Of a stretch of 64,000 nt of DNA, positions 7,154 through 42,567 are shown one piece after another. The position numbers and the translations under genes were made by a program. The stretch is from Spirochaetia bacterium (lineage in GTDB: Bacteria > Spirochaetota > Spirochaetia > UBA9216): the NCBI GenBank assembly GCA_963675665.1, contig OY776510.1:339467-403466 (forward strand), in the 5' to 3' direction. The notes beneath the pieces were generated by a model that was not told the origin of the DNA, did not search any database, and saw only the letters and a program-made list of their open reading frames with translations. The first letter of the stretch is position 1, and the number at the start of each line of letters is the position of its first letter.

Positions 7154-7224
7154 AAAACACTACAATCACTACCAATACGGGTACAAAATAATTTTGTACC
7201 CGTATAATTATATCATTTCCCTAA

Positions 7225-8184: not shown

Positions 8185-8315
8185 TTTCCATCTCCTAATT
8201 AATATATTTTGGTATTACCAGATACCATATTATAACTTAAGAATATTTTCTTGACAAGTTCTTTATCAAACAGAAAAAACTCATTAACGCTGCCTTGAAG
8301 ATCCCTTATCACAAC

Positions 8316-9707: not shown

Positions 9708-10241
9708 ACTACAATGCTTACATTTTATCAAGAAAAACATTATAAGATTTCACATAACTATAAAAAGTTTCAAATGCTGGGCAGGTCACTTATTTTCAGG
9801 ATGCAGCCTTATAGCATAAACCTAAATGAAATTATTTGTTTTTTTAAAAAAAGCATAAGAATTTCTACTTTTTGCAATCATTTCAACTCATTTAATGAAA
9901 ATGATCTTATCGTCCTTAGATAATTCAAAAAGAGTGTATGCAAACACATTAATGACGAATAAAGGGACATTAAAATATCTTCCGGGAAACATTTTGAAAT
10001 CAGGGTAGTGCCAAGTTTTTACATCTGAGAGAAATAAACTTTATAAAAAAAGTAACCCCGTTTTAAAAAGTTTTGACTGATAATGAAGCAAGCCTGCCGG
10101 ACAGCTCTTGCCCGGATTAACAAAGTGCCGGGTTTTTTATGATCTTCCTTGAAGAACAATCTGAAAATTATAAGTAACCAAAAGGAGCTCAATCAGCTGA
10201 CATAACTAGTTTTTTAAATTGTTATTAAATTTAAAATATAT

Positions 10242-10952: not shown

Positions 10953-11005
10953 TTATAGCTCCTTGAAAATCCTATCTTATTACACAAATAATGTTTCATA
11001 TAATT

Positions 11006-11023
11006 TGGTATTATATATTACCA
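11006..11023. promoter_or_regulatory. near-palindrome TGGTATTATATATTACCA in divergent GntR/HMGL promoter region (candidate FadR-type GntR operator)
   Basis: The TGGTA...TACCA arms fit the TGGT-N-ACCA logic of FadR-subfamily GntR operators. Position is 50 bp upstream of the GntR start and 180 bp upstream of the HMGL-like gene. Confidence 0.3.
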
Positions 11024-11204
11024 GAAACATGTTTATACTTCAACACTGAATTTTCTGCTTCTTGTACATATTAAAATTCAGCAAATCTAACCAATATTAT
11101 TCTATAACCGACACTTTTCATAAACCTTGTTTTTTAAATTGTTAATTGACAAATATATTACTTTTATATATGTTATATATAACAGAATAAGGAGGAAAAT
11201 CCAC

Positions 11205-23105: not shown

Positions 23106-23137
23106 ATATTTCTCCCGTCCGTTCTGATCTTGATATT

Positions 23138-24496
23138 CTAGTGATACGACGGACCTATCAGCTTTTCAGGAAGCCAGGTTATAATCTCCGGAAAAACTAT
23201 ACAAAGTACCAGCACCAGCATGATAATAAGAACAAAAGGAATAACTCCTTTTATTATATCACCCATGGTAAGCCCCAGTTTGGGATCAGCTGTCCCTTTA
23301 AGCACAAATATCGACATGGCCATAGGCGGCGTCTGAAAAGCCATCTGAAGGTTTATACAAATCATCATTCCCGCCCACAGGGGATTAAAACCAAGCTGAG
23401 TAAGTATCGGGGAAAAAATCGGAACAATGATAAATACAATACCTATCCATTCTATGAACATCCCAAGCAGAAATACAATAAGCATAATAACCGCAAAAGA
23501 GGCCCATTTGCCGCCGGGAACTGCAAGGATGAGCTTTGTTACAACATCTCCTGATCCGGCGCTCATAAATATTCCGACAAAAGCATAACATAAAGCAGCT
23601 ATTATAACAACAAAGGAACTTACCCTAAGGGTTTCGATCGCGGCATGCTTAATAAGGCTCCAGCTGAATTTCCTGTATATTATCGCCAGAATAACTGCTG
23701 CAAGACTTCCTACAGCGGCAGCCTCGGTAGGAGGCGCCATTCCTGAAAAAATTGTACCCAAAACAGCAATAATCAGGGCAACCGGAGGAACAAGGGATTT
23801 CATAAGTTTTACGAATTTGGCCATAGAAAACGGAGTTATTTCACTTTCAGACATTGCAGGTCCCGCTTCCGGCTGCAGACGGCACCTTATTGCAATATAT
23901 GCAACATAGAGCGCCGAAAGCAGCAGTCCGGGGAAAATAGCGCCCATGAACATCTGGCCGATCGAAAGCCCGGCCTGGGGTCCGTAGACTACAAGCATTA
24001 TACTCGGAGGAATAAGAATCCCCAGGGTTCCGGAGGCTACTATGGTACCTGCTGCAAGCGGCTTGTTATATCCGCGTGTTATCATGGGACCTAACGCTAT
24101 AAGCGTAAGTATGGTAACGGAAGCCGCAATTACCCCCAGGCAAGCAGCAAGGATAGTCCCGAATATAACGGTAACTATGGCAAGTCCGCCCTTAAGACCT
24201 CCGAGCGATTCGTACAGACTTTCATACAGCGTTTTCGTTATTCCCGAATGCTGGAGTATTACCCCCATAAAAGTGAACAGAGGTACCGCCAGATAAGGAT
24301 AATTAAGCGAAAGGCCGTAAAAACGGCTGTAAAGAATGTGAAAAGTTGTTTCAGGCCCGAAAACGAGAAATCCGACAATGAACGAAACACTTCCGATTAC
24401 AAAAGCGATGGGGAAACCGGTTAAGACCAGTGCAAAAACTCCCCCGAGCATTAAAAAGGTTACGAGTTCTGCGCTTATATCAATCAATTTTCTCAC
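23138..24496 (-). CDS. dctM: TRAP transporter large permease subunit
   Basis: 452 aa, 12-TM DctM family. Confidence 0.85.
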   Translation of the reverse strand: MRKLIDISAELVTFLMLGGVFALVLTGFPIAFVIGSVSFIVGFLVFGPETTFHILYSRFYGLSLNYPYLAVPLFTFMGVILQHSGITKTLYESLYESLGGLKGGLAIVTVIFGTILAACLGVIAASVTILTLIALGPMITRGYNKPLAAGTIVASGTLGILIPPSIMLVVYGPQAGLSIGQMFMGAIFPGLLLSALYVAYIAIRCRLQPEAGPAMSESEITPFSMAKFVKLMKSLVPPVALIIAVLGTIFSGMAPPTEAAAVGSLAAVILAIIYRKFSWSLIKHAAIETLRVSSFVVIIAALCYAFVGIFMSAGSGDVVTKLILAVPGGKWASFAVIMLIVFLLGMFIEWIGIVFIIVPIFSPILTQLGFNPLWAGMMICINLQMAFQTPPMAMSIFVLKGTADPKLGLTMGDIIKGVIPFVLIIMLVLVLCIVFPEIITWLPEKLIGPSYH

Positions 24497-24998
24497 CCCT
24501 TATCAAAAAATAAAAATCTCGAATAAATTTAGCCAATCCCTGCAGAATCAGCATCAACAACCCCAGGGCGAATATAATTCTGTACGGAGCCGCCGGAGGA
24601 TACCAGAAGCTGTTGAACATCACCTCATTAACCATCACAGCCTTTACAGACCACTTCACCGCAAGCTTAAACATGATGATCATCAGCGGAAAAAACAGAA
24701 TCAATGAACAGATTACATCCATAAGTGCCTGTTTTCTCTCAGACAGCTGGCTGTAGATAAGATCAACTCTGGTATGAGAATCTTTCAGATAAGTGTATGA
24801 GGCTCCGAGCAGATACAGGGCGCCTCCGGCCATACAGAGGCTGTCATAGGCCCAGATTGTAGGAGCGTTAAAGAAATGTCTGGATATGGTTTCGTACGAT
24901 CCTATCAGAACAAGGAGCACAGCAAACCACTTACCCACCTGCCCGGCTTTTTCACTTATCATATCAATCGTTTTTATCAATATTCTTAAAAAGGTCAT
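24480..24998 (-). CDS. dctQ: TRAP transporter small permease subunit
   Basis: 172 aa, 4-TM protein. Lies immediately upstream of dctM and overlaps it. Confidence 0.7.
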   Translation of the reverse strand: MTFLRILIKTIDMISEKAGQVGKWFAVLLVLIGSYETISRHFFNAPTIWAYDSLCMAGGALYLLGASYTYLKDSHTRVDLIYSQLSERKQALMDVICSLILFFPLMIIMFKLAVKWSVKAVMVNEVMFNSFWYPPAAPYRIIFALGLLMLILQGLAKFIRDFYFLIRGEKID

Positions 24999-25068
24999 GC
25001 TATGACTCCTTATAAAACAGGCCCCCGCTGCCGTTTTGACAGTAGGGACCCGTATTAAAAATAGTTAA

Positions 25069-26142
25069 TTAATGAACTGCGTCGTATGCTTCACCATATT
25101 CTTTCATCGACTGGTAGATTTTGCCGAAAATAGGATCTTCCGTAGCAGACTTCTCTTTATAGAAGGCTGCAGCTTCTGCTGTAAGAGCTTCTTCAATGTC
25201 GGACGGTACCTTGTATACTTCTACACCCGCTCCCCTGAATTTCTCAATAGCGTTTACTGATTCATAAACAAGGTATTCATGCTGGGCCTGGGTCCATCTG
25301 TCTATTTCACTCTGAACAATTTCCTTCAGATCATCCGGAAGTTCATTCCATGCGTCCTTGTTAACAAAGAACACCTGCGGATCACTGGGAGCTCTTGTCG
25401 GTGAGATGTAAAGATAAGGCGCTACTTCATTAAAATGCATGTTCCAGTTTGTCGCCAGGGTTGAGTATTCAAAGGCGTCGATAGTACCACGCTGCATGGC
25501 TTCATAACATTCGCTGCCCGGGATTATAACGGTTGCCGCACCCATTCTCTTAAGTACTTCACCTCCGTCGCCCATACATCTTGCCTTAAGACCTTTAATA
25601 TCCGCAAGACTTTCAAGCTTGACTTTGGAATGAAAGAAAACTTCTTCCGGGAGCGGAGACAGCGCTCCGGGGAACGTGATTACATCATAGCCTTCCATCA
25701 TTTCATTCATCAGGTCAGCTCCGCCGCCGTAGTTGAACCAGGTTCTAAGCGATTCTCCCGGTAGTCCGCCCGGACGGGAGCTTATAAGGCCGGCTGCAGG
25801 CCATTTATCCAGATTGTACATCGGACAGGTATAACCCATCTGAAGAACACCTTCGTTAATGGCATCAAGTTCTTTGTATGCCGGAACAATCGAACCTCCG
25901 ACAAACGGTTTAACCTCAAGTCTTCCGCCGCTGGCAAGCGTGATGGCTTCACAGCATTTATCATGAAAAATCTGTGACGGATCAGTTGCCGGTCCATGTC
26001 CTGAAGATTTCCAGACAATCTTTTCAACCTTCTTTACAGGTTCATCACCTGCCGCTGCAGTTTCTTTTTCTGCACAAGAAGTCATCCCGAACACAAGAAG
26101 CACAGCAAGCAGAATTAATACAGCTTTTTGTCTTTTAAACAT
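25069..26142 (-). CDS. dctP: TRAP transporter solute-binding subunit, DctP family (lipoprotein)
   Basis: 357 aa. Signal peptide with lipobox (GMTSC); DctP-family fold motifs. Confidence 0.8.
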   Translation of the reverse strand: MFKRQKAVLILLAVLLVFGMTSCAEKETAAAGDEPVKKVEKIVWKSSGHGPATDPSQIFHDKCCEAITLASGGRLEVKPFVGGSIVPAYKELDAINEGVLQMGYTCPMYNLDKWPAAGLISSRPGGLPGESLRTWFNYGGGADLMNEMMEGYDVITFPGALSPLPEEVFFHSKVKLESLADIKGLKARCMGDGGEVLKRMGAATVIIPGSECYEAMQRGTIDAFEYSTLATNWNMHFNEVAPYLYISPTRAPSDPQVFFVNKDAWNELPDDLKEIVQSEIDRWTQAQHEYLVYESVNAIEKFRGAGVEVYKVPSDIEEALTAEAAAFYKEKSATEDPIFGKIYQSMKEYGEAYDAVH

Positions 26143-26190
26143 CTATTCCCTCCTGAATAATTAATAATGAGCTGCGGGATTTCCGCCGAC

Positions 26191-27024
26191 TCAATAATCC
26201 AAAAAAATACTGCTTCCGGTGCTGTTATGAAAAAAACTGCTGCCTTCACGTTCAAGCCTCTTCATTCCATCAACACCGGTACAGTGAGAAACTCCCAGTA
26301 TTTTAATATTGTCGTTGCTGAGATATTTAATGGACATCTCAAGGTTCTCACCAGAAGCCTCAACCAGGTGAGTTCCCCCGAGAACCGCATATACAGGCTT
26401 ATCAAACTCTGCATATACAGTATCAATCATATTTTTAACCCCCGGATGAGAGCATCCAAGCAACACGACCATGCCCAGAGGAGTTTCTATTGCGATTAAA
26501 ATTTCATCGTTAAAAGGATCGCTTACAAACCGGTTGTTTTTTTTCAGTTTAAAGCGGGAATTAATTGTTTCGTCTGTATTACTGCGAATAAAATCCGTAA
26601 TTATAAAGATTCCGTTCCCAAGATCTGTCTTCCGGCTTTCAATAAAGCTGTGTTTGATATTTTTTTCCGTCAAATCCGCTTCAATGAAATTGTTTCCAAG
26701 GTATTCATATGAATTGTTCCGGTATCCGTATTTTTCTTCGAAAAAACCGTTTCCTAGAAAAAGTTTAAAATCATCGTTTATATCAGCCAAAGCCATCAGA
26801 CCGCCGGTGTGATCATAGTGACCGTGGCTGAGTATAACCTTCTCAACCCTTCTCAAATCCAAATTGAGCTGGGCAGCATTGTATAAAAAAGCATCAGTCT
26901 GCCCTGCATCGAACAACAGCATCGAACCATCCTTTTCGATGCAGAATGAAATGCCATGCTCGGTTTTTAACCCAAGGTGTTCACCCCGGCTGTTTTCAAT
27001 CAACGTAGTAATCTTCAATGGCAT
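26191..27024 (-). CDS. MBL-fold metallo-hydrolase
   Basis: HxHxDH motif (SHGHYDHTGG) and downstream His/Asp ligands. Confidence 0.7.
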   Translation of the reverse strand: MPLKITTLIENSRGEHLGLKTEHGISFCIEKDGSMLLFDAGQTDAFLYNAAQLNLDLRRVEKVILSHGHYDHTGGLMALADINDDFKLFLGNGFFEEKYGYRNNSYEYLGNNFIEADLTEKNIKHSFIESRKTDLGNGIFIITDFIRSNTDETINSRFKLKKNNRFVSDPFNDEILIAIETPLGMVVLLGCSHPGVKNMIDTVYAEFDKPVYAVLGGTHLVEASGENLEMSIKYLSNDNIKILGVSHCTGVDGMKRLEREGSSFFHNSTGSSIFLDY

Positions 27025-27046
27025 AATGCTTTTTATTCTCCTCTTT

Positions 27047-27745
27047 TCAGTTGCTTTGCATTGACCTCCTGATATCCTCTACGGCATTATTCAGATGCTC
27101 CAGCATCGCCGCTTCCGCTTTTTCAGGATTGCCGGCCTTTATGGCCTTTACAATGGCTTTATGCTCACCAACGGTTTTCTCTATTCTTCCCGGAACATGC
27201 AGACTTGAAATCCACCCTTCCGGAAGCGATTTGGTCATCGCTTTCATTATGAAATAAAGGGTCCTGTTTTTGGTTGATTTCGCGAGCAGTTCATGGAACC
27301 TCTCATCACACTTTATAAGGCTCCCGGTGCTTCCCCCCGGCATTTCCGCCTCAAAATCGCTACAGGCTTTCTCCAGCTTTTCGATATCATGATCATCAGC
27401 TTTCATAGCGGAGTGCGCAGCAGCTTTCGGATCGATAATCAGCCTTACTTCAAAATGATCAAAAATAGATTCTTCATTTGATCTAAGCCATTCCTGAAAA
27501 GCCGCCAGCTCATGCTGGATCGAATCAGCTATAAAGATTCCCTTTCCGTGCTTAACGGAAACATACCCGGTTGCTTCAAGAATCCTGACAGCTTCCCTTA
27601 TTGAAGACCTGCTGACTTCAAGTTTTTTTGTCAGTTCATTCTCTGAGTAAAATTTATCGCCCGGGGAAAAGCCGTCTTCGCTAATCATCTGCTTGATTGC
27701 TTCGATAACCCGATCCGACAGTCTGATTTTTTTTATCGGTTCCAT
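27047..27745 (-). CDS. GntR family transcriptional regulator (FCD subfamily)
   Basis: wHTH (ENELTKKLEVSRSSIREAVRILEATGYV) plus FCD domain. ATG at 27745 is preceded by AAGGTGG; the track's GTG at 27754 is less likely. Confidence 0.8.
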   Translation of the reverse strand: MEPIKKIRLSDRVIEAIKQMISEDGFSPGDKFYSENELTKKLEVSRSSIREAVRILEATGYVSVKHGKGIFIADSIQHELAAFQEWLRSNEESIFDHFEVRLIIDPKAAAHSAMKADDHDIEKLEKACSDFEAEMPGGSTGSLIKCDERFHELLAKSTKNRTLYFIMKAMTKSLPEGWISSLHVPGRIEKTVGEHKAIVKAIKAGNPEKAEAAMLEHLNNAVEDIRRSMQSN

Positions 27746-27759
27746 TTTTACCACCTTAT

Positions 27760-28052: not shown

Positions 28053-28832
28053 CTAATACCCGCTCTCAATCGTCTGGCCGCTGATTATTTTTATTCCGCC
28101 GCTGGTGCCCAGCCTTGTAGCTCCGGCTTTGATCATTGCAACAGCATCATCAAATGTCCGGACCCCTCCGGCAGCCTTTACTTCGGCATGTGCACCTACA
28201 GTCTTTTTCATCAGCGCAACATGTTCGGGTTTTGCACCGGCAGTTGAGAACCCGGTTGAGGTTTTTACAAAGTGCGCCCCCGTTTCCTTGCAGATCTGAC
28301 AGGCAAGAATAATTTCCTCTTCCGTAAGAAGGGCGGTTTCTATTATGACTTTCAGTTTCGCCCTCTGGCCGCATGCCCGAAGGACCCAAAGCACATCGTC
28401 TTTAACAAGTTTCAGGTCCCGTGATTTAAGGGCGCCGATATTCATTACCATATCGATTTCGTTTGCCCCGTCCTCAATAGCATGACGTGCTTCAAAATGT
28501 TTGCTTCGACTGTTCATGGCGCCGAGAGGAAAGCCTACAACGGAACAAACCTTTACATCCGTTCCCCGAAGGTTCCCGGCACAGCGTTCAACCCAGGTTG
28601 TATTCACGCATACTGAATAAAACCCGTACTCTTTAGCCTCGCTGCAGAGCTTGTCTATATCCTCAGCTGTCGCCTCAGGCTTCAGCAATGTATGATCTAT
28701 ATATTTGGCCAGTTCCGAAGGCCTAATGCTCAAGCTATCTCCGGTGTTTTTCCCGGTAGAAAAAGCCGGTTCAGCTTTCAGCCTGCTGACAACCTCTTTG
28801 GTTATGCTCTCAATCAGTTCATTTTCATCCAT
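28053..28832 (-). CDS. deoC: deoxyribose-phosphate aldolase with ~40-aa N-terminal extension (putative encapsulation peptide)
   Basis: Short-type DeoC core (KYIDHTLLKPEAT, VCVNTTWV, KVCSVVGFPLGA, FVKTSTGF). It is preceded by the amphipathic helix MDENELIESITKEVVSRLKAE and a low-complexity linker that free-standing DeoC lacks. Confidence 0.85.
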   Translation of the reverse strand: MDENELIESITKEVVSRLKAEPAFSTGKNTGDSLSIRPSELAKYIDHTLLKPEATAEDIDKLCSEAKEYGFYSVCVNTTWVERCAGNLRGTDVKVCSVVGFPLGAMNSRSKHFEARHAIEDGANEIDMVMNIGALKSRDLKLVKDDVLWVLRACGQRAKLKVIIETALLTEEEIILACQICKETGAHFVKTSTGFSTAGAKPEHVALMKKTVGAHAEVKAAGGVRTFDDAVAMIKAGATRLGTSGGIKIISGQTIESGY

Positions 28833-28837
28833 AATTT

Positions 28838-29338
28838 TTATCCGTTTCCCCTTTCCACAGCCATCATTTTATTAATCCTCGGCCAGTGCCTGCCGCCTTC
28901 GAAGCGTGTCTCAAGCCATATTTTTACCATTTCGCACAGCTCCCGGGGCTGGTGCAGCGGTCCTCCGAGTGTTAATACATTTGCGTTATTGTGTAATCGG
29001 CTGTTTTTCACCGTTACTATATCATAACACAGAGCGGCGCGTATACCTCTTACCTTGTTGCAGACCATCGACGATCCTATTCCGGCGCCGTCTATCATTA
29101 TTCCGCGCGAATCATCTTCAGCGGCCACCTTTCTGGCAACCTTCACCGCATAATCAGGGTAATCCACGCTTTCTTTTGAAAAAGTGCCTACGTCCTCCAC
29201 CCTGTAACCGAGCGTTTCAATATATCTTTTCAGGATTTCCTTGGATTCGAAACCTCCGTGGTCCGAGCCGATATATATCTTTGTAATCTTATCGGTACTG
29301 TTCTTTTCACTGAAATCAACACTGTTATACATAATCAC
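28838..29338 (-). CDS. rpiB: RpiB/LacA/LacB family sugar-phosphate isomerase
   Basis: 166 aa. IGSDHGGFE and GxGxG motifs of ribose-5-phosphate isomerase B. Confidence 0.8.
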   Translation of the reverse strand: MIMYNSVDFSEKNSTDKITKIYIGSDHGGFESKEILKRYIETLGYRVEDVGTFSKESVDYPDYAVKVARKVAAEDDSRGIMIDGAGIGSSMVCNKVRGIRAALCYDIVTVKNSRLHNNANVLTLGGPLHQPRELCEMVKIWLETRFEGGRHWPRINKMMAVERGNG

Positions 29339-29607
29339 CCCGCTGTTGTAATTTCATCAATTATTCCGACAATTACCGTCCGTATCGGTAGCCCCGACGA
29401 GTTTAAAACCAGGTTTGCCGAACCGCCCTCGTCAATAACAAGCACCCTGTCTCCCGTGCCGGCCTGCACCGTATCCACTGCGATAAAAGACGCTCCGGCC
29501 CTGCCGCCGTCCGGGGCTTCCGGCGTTACGATCAATAATTTCAGATTCTTCAGAGCTCCAATTTTCGCATCGGCGACAACAGTTCCGGTAACCCTGCCTG
29601 CAATCAT
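29335..29607 (-). CDS. BMC vertex protein (BMC-P, EutN/CcmL/PduN family)
   Basis: 90 aa. MIAGRVTGTVVA... GxVxxT motif and EutN_CcmL fold. Confidence 0.85.
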   Translation of the reverse strand: MIAGRVTGTVVADAKIGALKNLKLLIVTPEAPDGGRAGASFIAVDTVQAGTGDRVLVIDEGGSANLVLNSSGLPIRTVIVGIIDEITTAG

Positions 29608-29876
29608 ACTTCCGCCTTTTCCAGCTGATCAATAATACCGATTACCGCGGCATCAGCCGGATTAAACTGATTTCTCATCGACATCGCGGCCTCTCTGCCG
29701 CCCTCGTAAATCACCAAATCGCCGGGACCCGCCTGGACCGTATCGCAGGCAACTATCGGAGGGCCCTTTTCTTTCATTTCATCATCAAGCGGCTGGATAA
29801 GAAGCAGGATTTCTCCTTCAAAAGATTCCACCTTGACGGAACATACAACCGAACCCGTTACTCTTGCTATCTTCAT
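29604..29876 (-). CDS. BMC vertex protein (BMC-P, EutN/CcmL/PduN family)
   Basis: 90 aa. MKIARVTGSVVC...DTVQAGPGD; paralog of the adjacent BMC-P. Confidence 0.85.
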   Translation of the reverse strand: MKIARVTGSVVCSVKVESFEGEILLLIQPLDDEMKEKGPPIVACDTVQAGPGDLVIYEGGREAAMSMRNQFNPADAAVIGIIDQLEKAEV

Positions 29877-29888
29877 ATCTCAACCGCC

Positions 29889-31307
29889 TCAGACTATCCT
29901 GAAATTATCAACCAGAACGCACCGCCGTTCCCTGGTAAATGTCCTTGCCCTGGTGAACCCTTCCCCGGTAGGGCTGGCTATCGTAAAAGACGTGAACCCT
30001 GAACCGCCGTAACCCATACCGTTGAAATTCGAACCGTTTTTAACAAACAGCGAACAGTTCATAATTCTGGCCATTTTTGAGAGCTTGTCGATGTTGGTTG
30101 AATGTATCGACGCGCTGTGCCTGAAACCGTGTTCAACTTCAAAAGCAAAATCAATCGCTTCGTCTACATTGTTCATTCTTACAAGCGGGATTACGGGCAT
30201 CAGCTGCTCGGTCCATACCAGGGGATGAGAACCGTCGACTTCGCACAGCAGGATTCGCGTTTCCTCCGGAATATCAAGCCCTATCATTCCGGCAATTACC
30301 GATGCGTTTTTACCAACATATTTTTTGTTTATCGCACCTTCATCGCCTTTTCTTCCGGGCCGTTCGATAACCATATCCGTAACCGCCTTAATCTGTTCCG
30401 AACCCAGTTCAAAAGCTCCCTGTCTGCACATTTCCGTTTTCAGAAGGTCGGCCACCTGCCTGACGACAAAGATTTCCTTTTCGCAGATACAAACGATATT
30501 GTTGTCAAAACCTGTGCCGGCAACTATGTCCCTTGCGGCTTTAGGAATATCAGCTGTTTCATCAACAACTACCGGCGGATTTCCGGGACCGGCGGCTATT
30601 ACTTTTTTTGAGGACTGCCGCGCAAGGTTAACCACTGCCGGACCGCCCGTAACCGTAAGCAAGTCTACCAGCGGGTGCTTCATAAGCATCTGACCGGACT
30701 CTATTGTAGGTGCATCAACAGTAGTTATTACGTTATCAGGGCCCCCGGCTTCGGCAATTGCCCTGTTCAATATGCCTACCGTAAAAACCGATACCTTTTT
30801 AGCCGCCGGATGCGGGTTAAAAACCACCGTATTGCCGGCGGCAAGCATACTGATGGAATTATTGATTATGGTTTCGGTCGGATTAGTACTGGGCGCAATT
30901 GCCCCTATTACGCCGTACGGCGCATTTTCCACCAGCGTCAGCCCGTGATCATCGGTAAAACTCTGCGGCTCCAGGTCTTCCACGCCGGGAGTTAAATCGG
31001 CGGCAAGGGCGTTCTTTTTTAATTTATCTTCATACCGCCCCATTCCTGTTTCTTCCACAGCCATGGCGGCCAGTTTTTCCACGTTGGCATGAACTGCTGC
31101 TCGCATTTCCTTTATCATCTTTCGCCGGACTTCCAGACTTGTCTTCCGGTAAACGCCGAATGCTTTCGAGGCCTCATAGACGGCCTTGTTGATATCAGGA
31201 AAGACTCCGGGCACACTGTAAGCCGCCGCTTCTTTCCTGCCGTCGGTATTTAATTCCTCAATTACATTTTTCACTATCTCACTGACAGCTTTTTCATCAA
31301 TTTCCAT
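29889..31307 (-). CDS. CoA-acylating aldehyde dehydrogenase (EutE/PduP-like) with N-terminal encapsulation helix
   Basis: 472 aa ALDH fold with catalytic-Cys region NNIVCICEKE and AAGPGNPP. N-terminal amphipathic helix EKAVSEIVKNVIEEL. Confidence 0.85.
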   Translation of the reverse strand: MEIDEKAVSEIVKNVIEELNTDGRKEAAAYSVPGVFPDINKAVYEASKAFGVYRKTSLEVRRKMIKEMRAAVHANVEKLAAMAVEETGMGRYEDKLKKNALAADLTPGVEDLEPQSFTDDHGLTLVENAPYGVIGAIAPSTNPTETIINNSISMLAAGNTVVFNPHPAAKKVSVFTVGILNRAIAEAGGPDNVITTVDAPTIESGQMLMKHPLVDLLTVTGGPAVVNLARQSSKKVIAAGPGNPPVVVDETADIPKAARDIVAGTGFDNNIVCICEKEIFVVRQVADLLKTEMCRQGAFELGSEQIKAVTDMVIERPGRKGDEGAINKKYVGKNASVIAGMIGLDIPEETRILLCEVDGSHPLVWTEQLMPVIPLVRMNNVDEAIDFAFEVEHGFRHSASIHSTNIDKLSKMARIMNCSLFVKNGSNFNGMGYGGSGFTSFTIASPTGEGFTRARTFTRERRCVLVDNFRIV

Positions 31308-31860
31308 TGAAAAACCCCTTAAGGTCCGGATGCGGGCCCGGTATTATCACTCTGCTGTAAAGCATGCCCTTGCTGAAAAGCGGTTCTGCCGCTGCGTCAA
31401 CCGCAGGCTGTACATCGCTTACCGGCCCGTTTATCATCAAAATTCCCCGGCCGCCTGTTTCGTTCCCTGCCTTGATGGATACTATGTCGATTTCAGCCTT
31501 CTTTGCGGCCCTGTCAGCGGCTTCTATGGCGCCGGCAACGGACACTGATTCGACTATACCCAGCGCGTCGGGGGCCCGGGGGGCGCGGAACGTCTGCAGG
31601 GCCGGCAGAATACTACCGTCCAGAGCAGTGAGCAGCAGATGATCAAGTATCATGCTGCTGTTTTCAACAGCCCCGATTCCGGCATCAAGCGCTATTTCCG
31701 TCGACGCGACATCGCCGGTAACAAGAATCAGGAATTTACCCGGATTGACAATGTCCGCCTTCAATACTGAAACCGGAGCCGACTTTATCATTGCATCAAG
31801 GCACACATAACCGTCTGCGATGCTGAGCAGTTCAAGAACACCAAGAATTTCAGCATTCAT
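31297..31860 (-). CDS. BMC-T shell protein, tandem-BMC-domain PduT-like
   Basis: 187 aa with two PF00936 repeats. Alignable end-to-end with PduT (ILGVLELLSIADG...PGKFLILV...). Confidence 0.75.
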   Translation of the reverse strand: MNAEILGVLELLSIADGYVCLDAMIKSAPVSVLKADIVNPGKFLILVTGDVASTEIALDAGIGAVENSSMILDHLLLTALDGSILPALQTFRAPRAPDALGIVESVSVAGAIEAADRAAKKAEIDIVSIKAGNETGGRGILMINGPVSDVQPAVDAAAEPLFSKGMLYSRVIIPGPHPDLKGFFNGN

Positions 31861-32144
31861 TTTCTGTATACTTCCCTTCCGTTTTCAACTACAGAATCGA
31901 CAATTCCTACTATGAGCGCATCAACGGGTTTGTCGATCGTAGAGGGCGTCTGCCTTGTTGACGAGCCCTGTGAAACCATAACAATCTCGTCTTTACCGGC
32001 GCCGATTATATCCAGCGCTATCATGTCGCCGCCTGCCGTTTTGCCTTCGGGCGTCAGCGGGGACACAACCAGATACGCCGGCGAATCAAGTCCGTCCGCT
32101 CTGACTGCCGCAACAACCGTGCCGCTTACTTTTGCCAGCAGCAT
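31857..32144 (-). CDS. BMC vertex protein (BMC-P)
   Basis: 95 aa EutN/CcmL-like (MLLAKVSGTVVAAV...DIIGAGKDE). Confidence 0.8.
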   Translation of the reverse strand: MLLAKVSGTVVAAVRADGLDSPAYLVVSPLTPEGKTAGGDMIALDIIGAGKDEIVMVSQGSSTRQTPSTIDKPVDALIVGIVDSVVENGREVYRK

Positions 32145-32446
32145 TATTTTAAGCCCGCCTTTGAATAAACGATCTTTCCGTCGATTTCCAGATTATCAAC
32201 TATGGCTGTTATTGTCGCGTCGCTCGGTTTTCCACTTGTAACATCAGTCTGCCGGCTGCTGCTTCCGGTCACATAGAATACTATCTCGCCCATCCCTGCG
32301 CCTACGGCATCCATTGCGACAATAAAATCGTTTTTACCTTTCATTGTCTTCGGATCCAGTTTTTCAACCAGAAGGAATTTAATTCCGTCAAGCCTCGGCT
32401 CTTTCATAGTCGAGACTACCGTGCCGACCACTTTTGAAAGTACCAT
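32144..32446 (-). CDS. BMC vertex protein (BMC-P)
   Basis: 100 aa EutN/CcmL-like (MVLSKVVGTVVST...DAVGAGMGE). Confidence 0.8.
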   Translation of the reverse strand: MVLSKVVGTVVSTMKEPRLDGIKFLLVEKLDPKTMKGKNDFIVAMDAVGAGMGEIVFYVTGSSSRQTDVTSGKPSDATITAIVDNLEIDGKIVYSKAGLK

Positions 32447-32449
32447 CGG

Positions 32450-32749
32450 TTACTTCTTGCCTTCGGCTCTTCCAAGCGGATAGACAGCGTCAACGCTTTC
32501 ATGGGGCCTGGGTATAATACTCACTGAAATAATTTCGCCCACACGCTCTGCTGCGCGGTTGCCCGCATCAAGAGCAGCCCTGACTGCCGCCACATCTCCC
32601 CTTATCACGGACGTTGTATACCCGCCGCCGATTTTAACCTGGCCGATGAGTTCAACATTGGCCGCTTTTACCATTGCATCCGAGGCTTCAACCATTGCGG
32701 CGAATCCTCGTGTCTCTATCATTCCCAAAGCATTTTCAGTTATTGCCAT
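32450..32749 (-). CDS. BMC-H hexameric shell protein (PduA/EutM-like)
   Basis: 99 aa. ALGMIETRGFAAMVEASDAMVKAANV...GGGYTTSVIRGDVAAV. Confidence 0.9.
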   Translation of the reverse strand: MAITENALGMIETRGFAAMVEASDAMVKAANVELIGQVKIGGGYTTSVIRGDVAAVRAALDAGNRAAERVGEIISVSIIPRPHESVDAVYPLGRAEGKK

Positions 32750-33376
32750 TTATTCCTCCCTTCCGTTTATATCAGCAAGCCTTGCTTCGACCACATCCTT
32801 GCTTACAAGCACTTCGGCCTCTTCACCCGCGATATAAACTCTTCCGTATTTACCATACCCAGTTACATTTATAATCTTGATAGTGGACGCTTTCTCTGCT
32901 TCATTAGCCGCATAAAAAGCATATCCGGCCGGTTCGATCTCAAGAACAAACAGGGTATCTCCCCTCAGCACCATATTCCCATACCGGACTTTATTTACAA
33001 GCTGTGCATGGTGATCACTGACGTTTTTGATAAGCTGGCTTGTAAGAACGCGGGGTTTCATCCTGCTGGCCTCTTCCAGTTTCAGCTCTTCAAGGACGGC
33101 ACTCCCGGCCTGCCTTACATCGGCCTGACTGTCTGAATGGACCTCCAGCAGGCCGAAGGAGCGCTCAACTATCTGTATACCCGGGACCACATTCGTGGCC
33201 TTCAGGGCAATATCGGTAAGCCTGTTTATTTCTATTCCCGGTGAGATCTCAATAAACGCGCAGGCCTGGCCTCCCACAGGGAAATACCCCCGTGAAATAG
33301 TGCACATATACGACGCCATCTGAAGCTGCAGCGAATCAATAAAATTATAAGTTCGAAGATCTACGTTGTTCATCAT
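32750..33376 (-). CDS. BMC-T shell protein, circularly permuted tandem BMC (EutL/PduB-like)
   Basis: 208 aa; permuted BMC-domain signatures. Lacks the RHxH motifs of PduL, which excludes a phosphotransacylase. Confidence 0.55.
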   Translation of the reverse strand: MMNNVDLRTYNFIDSLQLQMASYMCTISRGYFPVGGQACAFIEISPGIEINRLTDIALKATNVVPGIQIVERSFGLLEVHSDSQADVRQAGSAVLEELKLEEASRMKPRVLTSQLIKNVSDHHAQLVNKVRYGNMVLRGDTLFVLEIEPAGYAFYAANEAEKASTIKIINVTGYGKYGRVYIAGEEAEVLVSKDVVEARLADINGREE

Positions 33377-33382
33377 TCACAC

Positions 33383-33670
33383 TCAGCCGTTCAGCGGCAG
33401 TTTCGCGTCTACAGAAGAATCCGGCCGGGGTATCAGGTGTACTGAAATAACCTCCCCAATTTTTTCGCCGGCCCTGCTTCCTGCATCAAGAGCAGCCTTT
33501 ACAGCGGCAACGTCTCCCCGGATTACGGCGGTAACGTATCCCCCGCCGGTTTTTTCCCAGCCTTTCAAATCGACTTTCGCAGCTTTTACCATCGCATCCG
33601 AAGCTTCAACAAGAGCGGCGAACCCCTTTGTTTCTATCATACCTAATGCTTCCGTCTGTATGTCAGCCAT
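33383..33670 (-). CDS. BMC-H hexameric shell protein (PduA/EutM-like)
   Basis: 95 aa. ALGMIETKGFAALVEASDAMVKAAKV...GGGYVTAVIRGDVAAV. Confidence 0.9.
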   Translation of the reverse strand: MADIQTEALGMIETKGFAALVEASDAMVKAAKVDLKGWEKTGGGYVTAVIRGDVAAVKAALDAGSRAGEKIGEVISVHLIPRPDSSVDAKLPLNG

Positions 33671-33681
33671 ACAACCTCCTG

Positions 33682-34461
33682 TTAAACAGTAAATAATTCT
33701 ATGCCATAATCCCTGATAATACGTTCATATTCTTCAGGAATACCGGTATCCGTTATAATTGCACTGAAATCTTCAAGTGAAGCAAAATAATTGGTCTGGA
33801 CCTTTCCGAATTTACTCGAATCAATCAGCAGAATCCTTTTCTGGCTGGATTCCATTATCGCTTCCTTTACAGCCCTCTCGTGGTGAATCTTTGTCGTCAC
33901 TCCCAGCTCTGCGGTTGCTCCGCTGGCCGAGACAAAGGCTGTAACCGCCCGTGTCCGCCTGATAAGAGACAAACCCTCGGGACTTTCAAACATCTGGGAA
34001 CGTTCATGAAACAACCCCCCGGCAAACAGCACCTGGCAGTTTTTCTTTCTGGTCATTTCATTCAGCACATTAAGCGAGTAGCAGAGTACTGTCAGGGGAA
34101 AATCAGCCGGAATCAGCCTGGAAACCAGTTCCATCGTCGAACCGGAATCGAGAGTGATAACATCGTCGGGGTCGATAAGGGAAACAGCTTTTTCGGCTAT
34201 CCTCTTTTTTTCGGCCATCCTGATCGTTCCCGCGACAGGCAGAGTATAATCCGCTTCCGGGTTTCTGCCTGTCGTTCCGGAATTGTAAAATACCCCTCCG
34301 TGCCTTGAAAGAACAAGATTCTGATCTTCAAGGATTCTCAGATCACGGCGTATCGTCATCTCTGATACCTGCAGCTTCCCGGAAAGATACTTTACATCCG
34401 CTGATTTGTTTTCTTCGAGATATTCAACTATCGAATTCAGCCGCCTGATTTTCTTGTTCAT
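33682..34461 (-). CDS. DeoR/GlpR family transcriptional regulator (first gene of BMC operon)
   Basis: 259 aa. N-terminal HTH (ADVKYLSGKLQVSEMTIRRDLRILE) plus DeoR C-terminal sugar-phosphate sensor domain. Stop lies 11 bp from the first shell gene. Confidence 0.8.
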   Translation of the reverse strand: MNKKIRRLNSIVEYLEENKSADVKYLSGKLQVSEMTIRRDLRILEDQNLVLSRHGGVFYNSGTTGRNPEADYTLPVAGTIRMAEKKRIAEKAVSLIDPDDVITLDSGSTMELVSRLIPADFPLTVLCYSLNVLNEMTRKKNCQVLFAGGLFHERSQMFESPEGLSLIRRTRAVTAFVSASGATAELGVTTKIHHERAVKEAIMESSQKRILLIDSSKFGKVQTNYFASLEDFSAIITDTGIPEEYERIIRDYGIELFTV

Positions 34462-34678: not shown

Positions 34679-35668
34679 CTATTTAAGAAGCTCGTCCAGT
34701 TTGTCCCTGTAAACTTCCCATGAAGTTGCGATAAGTGTCTCACAGTCGCTGTATTCGGCAACCCAGCCGAGCTTCTCTTTGGCCATTGCAGACGATGCAA
34801 CAAGTTTTGCAGGGTCCCCGGGTCGTCTGCCTACAATTTCGGAAGGAATCTCGCGTCCTGAAATTCTGCGTGCTTCTTCCAGCAGTTCCAGCACCGACAG
34901 CCCGTTTTCAGAACCAAGGTTAACGGTAAGGCTCTCGTCTTTCTCATTAATATATTTCAGGGCCCTGACATGGGCATCGGCCAGGTCAGTCACATGAACG
35001 TAATCACGCACCCCGGTTCCGTCTTTTGTGTCGTAGTCGTTACCGAAAATCTGGAGCTTTTCACGTATCCCCGCGGCAGTCTCCATTATCACAGGAAGCA
35101 GATTAGCCGGGTTGCGTTCAAGGCCCCTGATTTCACCGTCAACATCGTAGCCGGCTGCATTGAAGTATCTTAAAGCTGCATATTTCAAGCCCTTAAGTTT
35201 ATCATACCAGGAAAGGAACCGTTCAATCTCAAGCTTGGTGAAACCGTAGTAGTTTTCCGGGTTTTTAGGGTGCTCTTCGTCTACCGGAAGCCTTTTCGGT
35301 TCACCGAAAATAGCTGCTGACGAGGAAAAAACAAGCTTTTTCACACCGGCATCACAAAGAGCGTTAAGAATATTAATGGTGCCTGAGATATTGTTAACCG
35401 AATACTTCTCCGGATGAATCATCGACTCGCCTGCGGCTTTGAAGGCGGCAAGATGCACTGCCGCATCAAACTTATCAGACTGGAATGCATCTGAAAGTTC
35501 CAGCTGATTCAGAATATCCCCCTCAATAAACCCGGCTTCACTGAAAAGATTTTCTTCACGGCCCGAGGAAAGGTTGTCGAATACGGTTATTTTATGTCCC
35601 GCGTTTAAAAAAGCCTTTACAACATGGCTGCCGATATACCCGGCGCCGCCTATTACCATTACTTTCAT
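34679..35668 (-). CDS. galE: UDP-glucose 4-epimerase
   Basis: 329 aa SDR family. N-terminal MKVMVIGGAGYIGSHVV and YxxxK active site. Confidence 0.85.
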   Translation of the reverse strand: MKVMVIGGAGYIGSHVVKAFLNAGHKITVFDNLSSGREENLFSEAGFIEGDILNQLELSDAFQSDKFDAAVHLAAFKAAGESMIHPEKYSVNNISGTINILNALCDAGVKKLVFSSSAAIFGEPKRLPVDEEHPKNPENYYGFTKLEIERFLSWYDKLKGLKYAALRYFNAAGYDVDGEIRGLERNPANLLPVIMETAAGIREKLQIFGNDYDTKDGTGVRDYVHVTDLADAHVRALKYINEKDESLTVNLGSENGLSVLELLEEARRISGREIPSEIVGRRPGDPAKLVASSAMAKEKLGWVAEYSDCETLIATSWEVYRDKLDELLK

Positions 35669-35688
35669 TTAATACTCCCGTCCCTGCA

Positions 35689-36966
35689 CTACAATACTCT
35701 GCAGGCAGGTTTATTTCTGATTCCGAGCTCTGCGCAACATCCTTCTCCAAAAATACGCTCCATGTAAACAGTATACTCGTTTACACGGTTTACTGGAATA
35801 TATGCCTGGACAGTTCCGGCAAATCCTCCGCCCTGCACACGGCAGGCGCCGTCGCCGGATAGAAACTGCTCACTGAATGCGAGTCCGATACTCAAAGCCT
35901 GTTCAGCCGGCCTTCTTCCGATATATATGTTCTGAAGATATTTAAACGACGAATTACCCGATTCATTTACCAGCCTTAAATATTCGGCAAAATCATCATT
36001 TTCAAGAGCCTTAAACTGGGCAACTGTCCTTTTGTTTTCGTTGATAAAATGAAAAGCCCGAAGAACGGCCCTGTCTCCGCAGCTTTCGCGAATACCCCGG
36101 ATATTATCCGACAGCTGGTCCATTGTGATTCCGCGGCAGACATCCCTTCCGAGCCTCCCGGCTGCACAGCGCATTTCTTTCGGTATTGCGCTGTATTCAT
36201 CCGACAAATCTGCGTGGCTCGATCCGACTGCGGTGACCATCAGGCTGTAGCCTTTCGCGGCAAAACTGTAGCTGATCGGTTTTATAACAGGCGCTTCCGG
36301 ATTTTTAAAATCGATGCCCACTACACCGCCTGCAGCACAGGCTACCTGGTCCATCAGGCCGCAGGCCTTGCCGAAATATTGGTTTTCGGCAAACTGACCT
36401 ATCTGTGATACCTCGACATAGCCGACTTTTCCGTTGTTATACAATTCGCTCAACACCGTTCCAATCAGAACTTCTATTGATGCCGAAGAGCTTAACCCGG
36501 ATCCGGGCAGGACCTTTGAATCCATATTGCAGTTAAACCCGCCGGTTTTATAACCAAGCTCTTTGAAGCGGAAAAGAATGCCTCTGAGCAAAGCTGTAGT
36601 TGTGTCTTTTTCGCCTGCACGCACCGAAAGATCTGCCGTATCGAGCGTTACGGGATCATAGCCTTCGGAGATAAACCTAACCTTGCTTCCATCCGTTTTG
36701 GAAGCAACACATACTGAATCAAGCTCTACACTTCCTGCCAGTACATTTCCATGATTGTGATCCGTATGGTTTCCTCCCAGTTCAGTACGTCCCGGAGTAC
36801 TGATCACCATTGCTTCCGTATCGCCGAATAACTCATTATGCATATTCAACAATTTAAGATACCGTTCTCTTTGGGCCGGAAGCGCAGCCTCATTGTAGAT
36901 TTCACCAAGAACGACATCGGCTGAACAGGTTGTTACATCCCTGATAAGTTCTTTAATCGTCTTCAT
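35689..36966 (-). CDS. galK: galactokinase (GHMP kinase)
   Basis: Galactokinase signature PGRTELGGNHTDHN, PGSGLSSSASIEV and GGGFAG motifs. Confidence 0.75.
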   Translation of the reverse strand: MKTIKELIRDVTTCSADVVLGEIYNEAALPAQRERYLKLLNMHNELFGDTEAMVISTPGRTELGGNHTDHNHGNVLAGSVELDSVCVASKTDGSKVRFISEGYDPVTLDTADLSVRAGEKDTTTALLRGILFRFKELGYKTGGFNCNMDSKVLPGSGLSSSASIEVLIGTVLSELYNNGKVGYVEVSQIGQFAENQYFGKACGLMDQVACAAGGVVGIDFKNPEAPVIKPISYSFAAKGYSLMVTAVGSSHADLSDEYSAIPKEMRCAAGRLGRDVCRGITMDQLSDNIRGIRESCGDRAVLRAFHFINENKRTVAQFKALENDDFAEYLRLVNESGNSSFKYLQNIYIGRRPAEQALSIGLAFSEQFLSGDGACRVQGGGFAGTVQAYIPVNRVNEYTVYMERIFGEGCCAELGIRNKPACRVL

Positions 36967-38006
36967 TCTGCTGCCTCCCTGCTGAAGTGGATTTCCGGTA
37001 CTGCCCGGAGGGTTGAAGCCGCACCTTCCGCGCTGATATCCCTTTGCGGCATTGCAAGAAGCTCATACCCAACCATAAATTTCCTTATTTCGGCGGATCG
37101 CAGCAGCGGAGGGAAATAGTGAAAGTGAAAATGTACTTCAGGATACTCGCCGCCGTCGGTAGGTTTCTGATGGATTCCCATCGAATACGGAAATCTTGTC
37201 TGAAAAAGATTATCGTATTTGATGCCGAGCAAACGCAGAACGACTGCAAGATCCGTCTTCTCTTTATCATTCATAAGCGAAATACTGCCCATATGCCGTT
37301 TCGGCAGGATCATTGTTTCATATGGCCAGACGGCCCAGAACGGAACCAGAACTACGAAGCTTTCATTTTCATGAATTACCCTGCTGCCGTCTTCAAGTTC
37401 CTGCTTCAGATAATCGCATAGCATACATGAATTCTTCTCTTCATAATGCATTTTTTGATTTAAAAGTTCCATAGCCGGAAGCACCGGTATTTCACGCTCG
37501 GCCCATATCTGGCCGTGGGGGTGCGGATTTGAGCAGCCCATCATCGAGCCCCGGTTTTCAAAAATCTGTACATGATTTATGAATTCCATTGAACCGAGTT
37601 CTATATACTGGTCAACCCAAAGCTGAACTACATTTTTTATATCTTCTGTTTTCATCAATGCAAGGGTAAGATCATGCCTGGGAGAAAAACAGATTACACG
37701 GCATAAACCCTGTTCGGTTTTAGCCTGCAGAAGTCCGTTCTTATACACGCCTTCTTCTGTTTTCGGGAGAATGGCCATAAAATCATTATCAAAAACAAAA
37801 GTCCCGCTATAGTCGGGGTTCTTTATATCTCCGGCCCTTTTATTCCCCGGACAAAGATAACAGCCCGGATCATATTCCGGTAATCTTTCAGTAACGCTCT
37901 TGTCGACCTGTCCGTTCCACGGTCTTCTTGTCCGGTGCGGCGACACCTTTACCCATTCTCCCGTCAGGATATTCAGTCTGCGGTGAGGGTCTTCATTGAA
38001 ATTCAA
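36963..38006 (-). CDS. galT: galactose-1-phosphate uridylyltransferase
   Basis: HPHGQ active-site motif; N-terminus aligns with E. coli GalT (NFNEDPHRRLNILTGEWV). Likely TTG start at 38006 behind GGAGG gives 347 aa. The track's 38066 start falls inside the operator palindrome and was rejected. Confidence 0.8.
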   Translation of the reverse strand: MNFNEDPHRRLNILTGEWVKVSPHRTRRPWNGQVDKSVTERLPEYDPGCYLCPGNKRAGDIKNPDYSGTFVFDNDFMAILPKTEEGVYKNGLLQAKTEQGLCRVICFSPRHDLTLALMKTEDIKNVVQLWVDQYIELGSMEFINHVQIFENRGSMMGCSNPHPHGQIWAEREIPVLPAMELLNQKMHYEEKNSCMLCDYLKQELEDGSRVIHENESFVVLVPFWAVWPYETMILPKRHMGSISLMNDKEKTDLAVVLRLLGIKYDNLFQTRFPYSMGIHQKPTDGGEYPEVHFHFHYFPPLLRSAEIRKFMVGYELLAMPQRDISAEGAASTLRAVPEIHFSREAAE

Positions 38007-38039
38007 ATTTCTGCCTCCGGTTTGAATATAAATAAATGC

Positions 38040-38067
38040 TTGACAATAATATGTACACGTGTACAAT
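38040..38067 (+). promoter_or_regulatory. sigma70-like promoter (TTGACA-16-TACAAT) overlapped by perfect 14-bp palindrome TGTACACGTGTACA (38052-38065), a putative LacI-family operator
   Basis: -35 at 38040-38045 and -10 at 38062-38067, upstream of the LacI-family gene. The palindrome fits the LacI/GalR-family operator architecture and lies between the divergent regulator and galTKE. Confidence 0.45.
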
Positions 38068-38092: not shown

Positions 38093-39088
38093 ATGAAAAA
38101 AGCTGATTCAGATAAATCAGTCCCGCTCAGGGACCAGGTTGCCGCGGCAGCAAATGTCAGCAGCGCAACGGTTTCCAGGGTTTATAATAATCCTTCAAGT
38201 GTAAGCAGGGAAAAATGCGAAGCAGTCAGAAATGCCGCAGAAGCTCTGGGCTATGTTCCGAACAAGTCGGCAAGTGCTCTCAGACGTAACGGCAGCGGTA
38301 TAATCACCCTTGTTGAACTTAAAAAAAAGCAAAGACAATACTACTGGGCAGATCTGCCGATTTTCAAATGGTTTTATGCCGATGTTCTTCACTCGGTAAA
38401 AAATGTAATTGACGGCAGTATGTACCAGCTGAATATAGCCTCGGTCAAAGGCCCGGATGATTTGAAAGCATTAAAAGCCGGAACAGACGGTCTTATCTGC
38501 TATGATGTTGACGAGCCCGCAGAGGCTGAAATGATCGCGGAGGCCGGCATTCCTTACGTTATAGGCCACCACACAAAATCGTTCGCCGGCTTTTCAAGAT
38601 GCAGTACCGATAATTTTGAGGGGGGCCGTATCCAGGCCTTAATGCTTAAAGATGTCGGCTGCAACCGGCCGGCCTATATAACAGCTCATCTTGATATGGT
38701 CCGGCCCCACCGGGAGCGGCTTGAAGGATTTTTATCGGTATATTCCGAACAGAATGTGATAATTACCGGAGACGGAGTTGGCCGTGAAGCCGGATACAAA
38801 GCGGTGCATAATCTTGCAGACACTGTAGACGGCATTGCTGCAGTAAACGACATTACAGCTGCCGGCGCAGGATACGCATTAATGGAATCCGGGCTAAAGG
38901 TGCAGCAGGATATTCCGCTGGCAGGCTATGATAATATGCCTTTAAGCATTGCTCTTCCGTTCAGGCTTTTATCCGTTGATCTGAAACCGTCCATTATATA
39001 TGAAAAAGCGGCCGATAAACTTTTGGAACTTCTATTAGGAAAAAAACCGGAAGAAAATTCAACTGTACTTCCTGAAAAAATAATTTAA
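38093..39088 (+). CDS. LacI family transcriptional regulator (GalR-like)
   Basis: 331 aa. N-terminal HTH (VAAAANVSSATVSRVYNN) plus periplasmic-binding-protein-like sugar-binding domain. Confidence 0.85.
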   Translation: MKKADSDKSVPLRDQVAAAANVSSATVSRVYNNPSSVSREKCEAVRNAAEALGYVPNKSASALRRNGSGIITLVELKKKQRQYYWADLPIFKWFYADVLHSVKNVIDGSMYQLNIASVKGPDDLKALKAGTDGLICYDVDEPAEAEMIAEAGIPYVIGHHTKSFAGFSRCSTDNFEGGRIQALMLKDVGCNRPAYITAHLDMVRPHRERLEGFLSVYSEQNVIITGDGVGREAGYKAVHNLADTVDGIAAVNDITAAGAGYALMESGLKVQQDIPLAGYDNMPLSIALPFRLLSVDLKPSIIYEKAADKLLELLLGKKPEENSTVLPEKII

Positions 39089-42552: not shown

Positions 42553-42567
42553 TTCCCGCCCGCCGGA

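Follow-up and report, generated by a model that had tools for sequence, protein, structure and literature searches.

Four BMC-P paralogs in a probable sugar-phosphate-utilisation (SPU2) operon of a Spirochaetia bacterium

The BMC-P genes and their operon

The window analysed here is a stretch of 64,000 nucleotides (nt) from a Spirochaetia bacterium (Spirochaetota; Spirochaetia; UBA9216), comprising positions 339,467 to 403,466 of the forward strand of contig OY776510.1 (assembly GCA_963675665.1). It contains a bacterial microcompartment (BMC) operon with four genes for BMC-P, the family to which the pentameric vertex proteins of BMC shells belong. The operon is probably a canonical subtype 2 sugar-phosphate-utilisation (SPU2) locus, and its four BMC-P genes probably represent the standard, ancient, separately conserved and non-redundant set of this locus type.

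A preliminary description of the window had reported four distinct EutN/CcmL-family genes in two tandem pairs, an arrangement that we confirm. P1 (32144-32446, 100 aa) and P2 (31857-32144, 95 aa) form one pair and P3 (29604-29876, 90 aa) and P4 (29335-29607, 90 aa) the other, all on the minus strand; they are members of orthogroups A1, A2, B and C, respectively, which are defined below. Searched with the Pfam profile PF03319 (EutN_CcmL; 83 positions, with the gathering score of 25 bits as cut-off), P1 to P4 score 87.1, 80.7, 90.8 and 77.8 bits. Each match covers profile positions 1-83 of 83 with E-values between 1e-22 and 8e-26, far beyond chance. A hidden Markov model (HMM) of the four paralogs was run against the 251 open reading frames (ORFs) of the 64-kb window that reach 50 aa; it matches these four and no others. 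The P1 and P2 ORFs share a single nucleotide (TAATG) and the P3 and P4 ORFs share four (ATGA). All four have intact start and stop codons and full-length Pfam matches.

In a MAFFT alignment, pairwise identity among the four proteins is 30.0-44.2%, with P1-P2 the most similar pair (44.2%) and P3-P4 at 38.6%. They are therefore no recent duplicates. None fails PF03319, and no pair is more than 90% identical. The DDEMKEKG segment of P3, previously described as a long acidic insert, does belong to a diverged and more acidic loop. It is not an insert, however, since the loop is equally long in each of the proteins (P1 DPKTMKGKND, P2 TPEGKTAGGD, P3 DDEMKEKGPP, P4 APDGGRAGAS).

The BMC-P genes are part of a minus-strand cluster with the gene order DeoR, BMC-H, BMC-Tdp, BMC-H, P1, P2, BMC-Ts, AldDh, P3, P4, RpiB, DERA (28053-34461). 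The same set was called independently in a sister genome, whose locus is 96.2% identical in DNA. The first gene encodes a DeoR-family regulator (33682-34461; PF08220 and PF00455). It is followed by two hexamer-forming BMC-H proteins (33383-33670, 95 aa, PF00936 with 99.8 bits; 32450-32749, 99 aa, PF00936 with 97.8 bits), which flank a CcmP-like double-stacking trimer, BMC-Tdp (32750-33376, 208 aa). The Pfam BMC match of the latter is merely weak; it aligns with CcmP (PDB 4HT5) at E=2.7e-65 and with HO-5816 at 1e-64, and the corresponding protein of the sister genome has a match to PF27545 (CsoS1D_N). The edge motifs of the two BMC-H proteins are not alike: the one encoded at 33383-33670 has KAAK...PRPD, the one at 32450-32749 KAAN...PRPH. 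This motif usually reads PRPH, and the unusual PRPD of the first protein might alter its contacts with neighbouring subunits, BMC-P included. For another SPU subtype, the BMC catalogue of Sutter et al. 2021 (PMC8217296) notes that two BMC-H paralogs have interface residues of complementary charge.

Downstream of P2 lies the gene for BMC-Ts (31297-31860, 187 aa), a PduT-like tandem-domain trimer with two PF00936 domains (PduT, PDB 3N79, E=1.4e-32). Wild-type PduT binds an Fe-S cluster through a pore cysteine (TICPGKF); the window protein has asparagine at this position (IVNPGKF). The cysteine is kept in 80% of catalogued SPU2 BMC-Ts proteins (PMC8217296), which places the window copy in the minority and suggests that its pore is presumably purely structural. 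No PduS homologue was found in the 64-kb window.

The enzymes of the cluster are an acylating aldehyde dehydrogenase (AldDh; 29889-31307, 472 aa, PF00171 with 142 bits), the core enzyme of metabolosomes, and the two SPU signature enzymes, an RpiB-type ribose-5-phosphate isomerase (28838-29338, PF02502 with 173.8 bits) and a DeoC-type deoxyribose-5-phosphate aldolase (DERA; 28053-28832, PF01791 with 67.4 bits over residues 42-248). Homologues of AldDh are annotated as EutE or propionaldehyde dehydrogenase and come mostly from metagenome-assembled genomes (MAGs) of Spirochaetales. AldDh has about 35 residues ahead of its Pfam domain, beginning MEIDEKAVSEIVKNVIEELN, and the N-terminus of DERA is extended by about 40 residues, which include ELIESITKEVVSRLK. 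Judged by eye, both extensions look like amphipathic helices or encapsulation peptides, and such N-terminal peptides have been noted for SPU2 (PMC8217296). RpiB has an N-terminal extension of about 20 residues, counted from a GTG start, that is not helical-looking.

The separation of the BMC-P genes into two pairs, together with weak promoter-like matches within the cluster, could mean that two gene blocks build alternative shells, differing in size or permeability according to conditions, each with its own BMC-P set. Alternative shell sizes were among the proposals of the preliminary description. We consider such alternative shells quite improbable. From DeoR to DERA, all genes overlap or lie at most 12 nt apart, and consensus matching detected no terminator-like site inside this cluster, and so none between the blocks. 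Moreover, the second block has no BMC-H gene of its own. The internal promoter-like matches score 9/12, and their number (16) is not far above the 9.0 (sd 3.0) expected from shuffled sequence. Upstream of DeoR, consensus matching alone points to a promoter-like site (34501-34473) and, beyond it, a hairpin resembling a terminator (34590-34571).

Assignment to SPU2 and conservation of four orthogroups

SPU2 is represented in the catalogue by 53 loci, mainly from Bacteroidetes and Spirochaetes but also from several candidate phyla (PMC8217296, Supplementary Data 2). Its enzymes are AldDh, pfam01791 (DeoC/DERA) and pfam02502 (RpiB) only, and its shell set consists of one or two BMC-H, a CcmP-like BMC-Tdp, a BMC-Ts and a BMC-P triplet plus an extra copy from the green clade. 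Four BMC-P genes are therefore the documented norm for this locus type. Across the catalogue, BMC-P is commonest as one copy or as three paralogs. A study of SPU loci from 2024 (PMC11585597) likewise found at least a triplet of BMC-P in every SPU locus and stated that the reason "remains unknown".

The window agrees with this definition in each respect. AldDh, RpiB and DERA are all present, and neither PTAC, PduS, TPI nor alcohol dehydrogenase was found between DeoR and DERA. Two BMC-H, a CcmP-like Tdp and a PduT-like Ts make up the shell set. Each of the four BMC-P genes belongs to an orthogroup of its own: P1 and P2 cluster with the Haliangium ochraceum (HO) BMC-P and CcmL, and P3 and P4 form part of two other clusters. 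The closest relatives, from Spirochaetales and Spirochaetia, fit the taxonomic range of SPU2. Compared with catalogued SPU2 loci, the window has the same enzymes and shell set and differs in nothing of substance.

A direct link to the catalogue is provided by the locus of Spirochaeta sp. LUC14_002_19_P3, a catalogued SPU2 locus with orthologous four genes. Its A1 protein (B0D92_03575, 101 aa), the counterpart of P1, carries the catalogue label 'viridian1', a green shade. The second gene (B0D92_03570, 95 aa) is the counterpart of P2 and is labelled 'kermit' (best HMM P_kermit_spu2like), also a green shade. In SPU, HO, ACI, PVM, MIC and FRAG loci, the BMC-P triplet consists of a green, blue or purple member together with a grey and an orange one. 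P1, P3 and P4 reproduce this triplet, to which the window adds a fourth member, P2.

To place the four genes among their relatives, we used 80 loci fetched from GTDB species-representative genomes by alignment of AldDh homologues; ORFs were called in each locus and searched with the four-paralog HMM. The window's own genome, which may be no catalogued instance, is absent from these loci, the best of which is 71% identical. The closest named AldDh homologues and loci come from Spirochaetales and Spirochaetia MAGs, at up to 84% identity. Four BMC-P genes were found in 32 sources, the window included, and three in 20; many of the others are cut contigs.

Clustering of 221 BMC-P ORFs with three reference pentamers gave three major clusters. 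Cluster A contains P1, P2, the Haliangium BMC-P (PDB 5V74) and two CcmL proteins, whereas clusters B (53-56 members) and C (51-53 members) consist of P3-like and P4-like proteins, respectively. At finer resolution, A splits into A1, with P1 and the reference pentamers, and A2, with 36 P2-like members. A2 is monophyletic in a neighbour-joining (NJ) tree, and its members come almost only from SPU2-type loci with four BMC-P genes. The midpoint root of this tree falls on the long A2 branch, and the tree is therefore silent on whether A2 originated by duplication of A1.

Exactly one member each of A1, A2, B and C is present in 30 loci from at least five phyla, in the order A1-A2-B-C in all but one of them (29/30). 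A1-B-C triplets were found in 12 loci and A1 alone in 18. The complete order of the window, H>Tdp>H>A1>A2>Ts>AldDh>B>C>RpiB>DERA, recurs in 12 other loci, and 7 more lack only the first BMC-H. According to record titles, the loci derive from Spirochaetota, Bacteroidota, Atribacterota, Ca. Moduliflexus, KSB3, Planctomycetaceae and Leptospiraceae. The four-BMC-P architecture is thus already described for SPU2, and the locus is ordinary in this regard. The preliminary description had implied that four copies are unusual, which is not supported, four being the norm for this locus type; its remark that BMC-P multiplicity has been catalogued, possibly for SPU, without an explanation agrees with the 2024 study. 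Several loci, including L036, L045 and L057, deviate from the pattern, with a tandem B-like pair or with small additional clusters (other5, other7) in place of B or C. These clusters may be further BMC-P subclades or noise of simple clustering.

Mean identity within groups is 0.64 for A1, 0.50 for A2, 0.55 for B and 0.52 for C, compared with 0.31-0.41 between groups. The distances of all four groups track those of AldDh (r=0.61-0.77). Relative to AldDh, A1 evolves at an equal rate, B 1.4 times, C 1.5 times and A2 about 1.7 times as fast, so that A2 is about 1.7 times faster than A1. The ratio of nonsynonymous to synonymous substitution rates (dN/dS) was evaluated for 12 pairs that passed a dS filter, ten of which were too diverged (dN 0.18-0.56). 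In the two informative pairs, L025/L026 and L024/L015, dN/dS is 0.01-0.12 for all four genes. Taken together, the group identities, the co-divergence with AldDh and the low dN/dS values indicate that the orthogroups are old and non-redundant, that the paralogs have been inherited with the locus and that each is under purifying selection, the last as far as the two informative pairs reach.

The tandem arrangement, and nothing else, would favour the view that the four genes arose by recent duplication and are trivially redundant, or that some of them are decaying copies. This view is refuted, and we assign it a negligible probability. The proteins are only 30-44% identical, each has its own orthologues in the same order in several phyla, dN/dS does not exceed 0.12 in the informative pairs, and the ORFs are full-length and intact.

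The surroundings of the operon were also inspected. Upstream, a complete Leloir set, galT-galK-galE, lies on the minus strand (34679-38066), with the hairpin at 34590-34571 between this set and DeoR. A divergent LacI-family regulator (38093-39088, plus strand) is located beside the Leloir set, an arrangement also seen in the sister genome (L081). Downstream, the minus strand encodes a GntR/FCD regulator, a metallo-beta-lactamase-fold protein, a TRAP transporter (DctP, DctQ, DctM) and a glycerate-kinase-like DUF4147/MOFRL protein (21750-27754), which could constitute an uptake and salvage module. The GC content is 0.45-0.50 over the BMC region (28-38 kb) compared with 0.33-0.40 at 1-12000 and 42000-44000. 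Genes for a histidine kinase and for a response regulator of the AraC type lie in the low-GC stretch at 42-44 kb.

Fold and contact motifs of the four BMC-P groups

The best solved relative of P1 is the Haliangium BMC-P 5V74 (E=2.7e-26), with 51 of 96 aligned positions identical. P1 aligns with the Haliangium protein (5V74, 6MZX) over the full length, including the motifs VGAGxGE, GSSxRQT and AIVD, and is the orthologue of this shell vertex pentamer, of the canonical type. P2 is more distant from 5V74 (E=1.3e-16). P3 (1.5e-10) and P4 (3.9e-9) are much more distant and lack either GSSAR or D75. Their best solved match is EutN (PDB 2HD3), with E=4.7e-12 for P3 and 1.2e-9 for P4, and both are remote from every solved BMC-P.

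For P3 and P4, AF2 monomer models were built from alignments of database homologues; the fold of P1 and P2 was judged from sequence. The P3 model has a predicted local distance difference test score (pLDDT) of 84.1, and a Foldseek search of the PDB matched it to pentameric BMC-P structures at template modelling (TM) scores of 0.78-0.86. The P4 model (pLDDT 92.7) matched GrpN, CcmL, EutN and the HO BMC-P at TM 0.83-0.88 in the same type of search. Both models show the compact BMC-P fold without extra domains, extensions or elements. A single domain of 90-100 aa with a five-stranded barrel and one helix is thus predicted for all four proteins, by the models for P3 and P4 and by sequence for P1 and P2.

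The residues associated with contacts to hexamers were compared by column statistics. G8, D45, G50/G52 with an acidic residue at position 53, and I81-[V/I]82-D83 are kept in A1, A2, B and C. In the window proteins, the corresponding segments are GAGMGE and IVD in P1, GAGKDE and IVD in P2, QAGPGD and IID in P3, and QAGTGD and IID in P4. The structural work on the HO shell is said to have identified a role of I-[V/I]-D in the contact between pentamer and hexamer. In a review, the loop GCxPGD of CsoS4A is equated with GAGxGE, its acidic residue forming a salt bridge and its glycine a hydrogen bond to the hexamer, and the partners on the hexamer side are the arginine of the PRPH motif and the lysine of the KAA motif. 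Both BMC-H proteins of the window have KAA and PRP[H/D]. All four groups keep the hexamer-contact motifs and the BMC-P fold.

Beyond this shared core, the groups can be told apart by characteristic positions. Position 48 is glycine in A1 and A2 and glutamine in B and C. The helix at 59-64 reads GSSAR in A1 and A2 and G-R-E-A-A in B, with loss of R64; in C it has E59 and G60, with R64 in 88% of members. Arg64 is therefore a residue that A1, A2 and C keep in most loci. T66 and T69 are kept in A1 and A2 and not in B and C. Position 75 is aspartate in A1, A2 and B, and arginine in C.

The changes in the GSSAR helix of B and at D75 of C, together with EutN 2HD3 as the best solved match of P3 and P4, marginally ahead of the HO BMC-P, raise the possibility that one or more of the paralogs do not serve as vertex proteins, P2, P3 and P4 being the likeliest candidates. 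Such a protein might act as an assembly chaperone, as a lumen-side cargo organiser, as a capping regulator or as a tile resembling a hexamer, as seen in the EutN crystal form. We regard this as unlikely. The contact motifs and the compact fold without additions, found in all four, are what would be expected of subunits integrated into the shell. The E-values of P3 and P4 against 2HD3 and 5V74 are less than two orders of magnitude apart, and the difference is therefore uninformative with respect to the oligomeric state.

The P3/P4 pair and the roles of the paralogs

If the locus is the canonical SPU2 operon that it appears to be, all four proteins would be built into one shell as vertex-type subunits, with P1 providing the ordinary, main caps. 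Translational coupling would provide for joint synthesis of P3 and P4, which would function as a pair. In both, the GSSAR helix retained by P1 and P2 appears to have been replaced. The paralogs would thus supply chemically distinct vertex units instead of spares. DERA, RpiB and AldDh would be enclosed by the shell. In the SPU pathway described in the literature, cleavage of deoxyribose-5-phosphate by DERA yields glyceraldehyde-3-phosphate and acetaldehyde, the latter being oxidised to acetyl-CoA within the shell.

Several observations single out P3 and P4. B and C co-occur, directly adjacent, in almost every locus having either, in agreement with the rule that grey and orange BMC-P always co-occur in the catalogue (PMC8217296). 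Of 49 adjacent B-C pairs, those of triplet loci among them, 35 have a 4-nt overlap of the B stop codon with the C start codon, compared with only 7 of 34 A1-A2 pairs. This overlap favours coupled translation. In SPU2 loci, B and C are located between AldDh and RpiB/DERA, whereas A1 and A2 lie among other shell genes.

These features could be accounted for if P3 and P4 co-assemble as a hetero-oligomeric unit that caps some vertices or ties the shell to its cargo, a possibility that we consider to be real but doubtful. Co-assembly would explain why the two genes travel together, side by side in almost every locus, and it would be served by the coupled translation that the 4-nt overlap favours. 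B and C share Q48 and an aspartate at position 53, unlike A1 and A2, and diverge from each other in the 59-64 helix and at residue 75 (D in B, R in C). Their genes are embedded among those of the enzymes (AldDh>B>C>RpiB>DERA in SPU2 loci). A precedent is provided by CsoS4A and CsoS4B of alpha-carboxysomes, two adjacent BMC-P paralogs that, like P3 and P4, are always found together; they form heteropentamers on co-expression, and their separate roles are unknown. However, the CsoS4 proteins match the window proteins only at E-values of at least 2e-4, belong to another clade of the catalogue (PMC8217296) and are part of an anabolic organelle. Adjacency and overlap are also common in operons whose products do not form heteromers. 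In a mirror-tree analysis controlled for AldDh distance, the partial correlation was no higher for B-C (0.44) than for A2-B (0.44) or A1-C (0.41), with 0.40 for A2-C, and gave no specific B-C signal.

This absence of a B-C signal is one of several points that weigh against the reading of the locus as an SPU2 operon with four distinct vertex-type proteins. Only one BMC-P sequence in the solved HO shell entry was matched by the P1-P4 queries, and there is therefore no structural precedent for a vertex protein of the B or C type. The Haliangium genome has three BMC-P genes. The assignment of P3 and P4 to the 'grey' and 'orange' clades of the catalogue is suggested by elimination only. The contact loop of A2 is looser than that of the other groups, with G52 in 47% and G50 in 67% of members, and reads GAGKDE in P2. 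In P4, residue 65 (column 64) is asparagine (EGGSAN), where 88% of group C have Arg64 (EGNSAR). Finally, any oligomeric state, shell position or abundance of P1 to P4 is here a prediction from sequence.

A more specific proposal is that P3 and P4 form an obligate two-protein unit, either a mixed pentamer or a specialised cap connecting the shell to the enzyme core, and that P2 is a variant cap associated with SPU2. The gene overlap, the co-occurrence, the shared Q48 and D53 combined with complementary differences at 59-64 and 75, and the location among enzyme genes are compatible with an obligate P3/P4 unit. We put this combined proposal forward as speculative, with a rather low probability.

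For annotation, our analysis suggests that the locus should be labelled an SPU2 metabolosome with the standard four BMC-P, and that no anomaly needs to be recorded. The wider question, which is recognised in the field, is why many metabolosomes should need three or four vertex paralogs for a shell that is capped by 12 pentamers; the window does not answer why several BMC-P paralogs exist. It does offer handles for experiments in the form of four orthogroup-specific motif sets, the conserved B-C overlap and an A2 group that evolves faster than A1. Most SPU2 examples are MAG fragments, whereas this locus is located on a 5.15 Mb contig and its 96%-identical sister on a contig of 5.38 Mb. If the organism were cultured, it would provide a compact 12-gene system in which each paralog could be deleted. 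Should P3 and P4 prove to be an obligate unit, the vertices of SPU, HO, ACI and PVM shells would fall into at least two functionally distinct classes.

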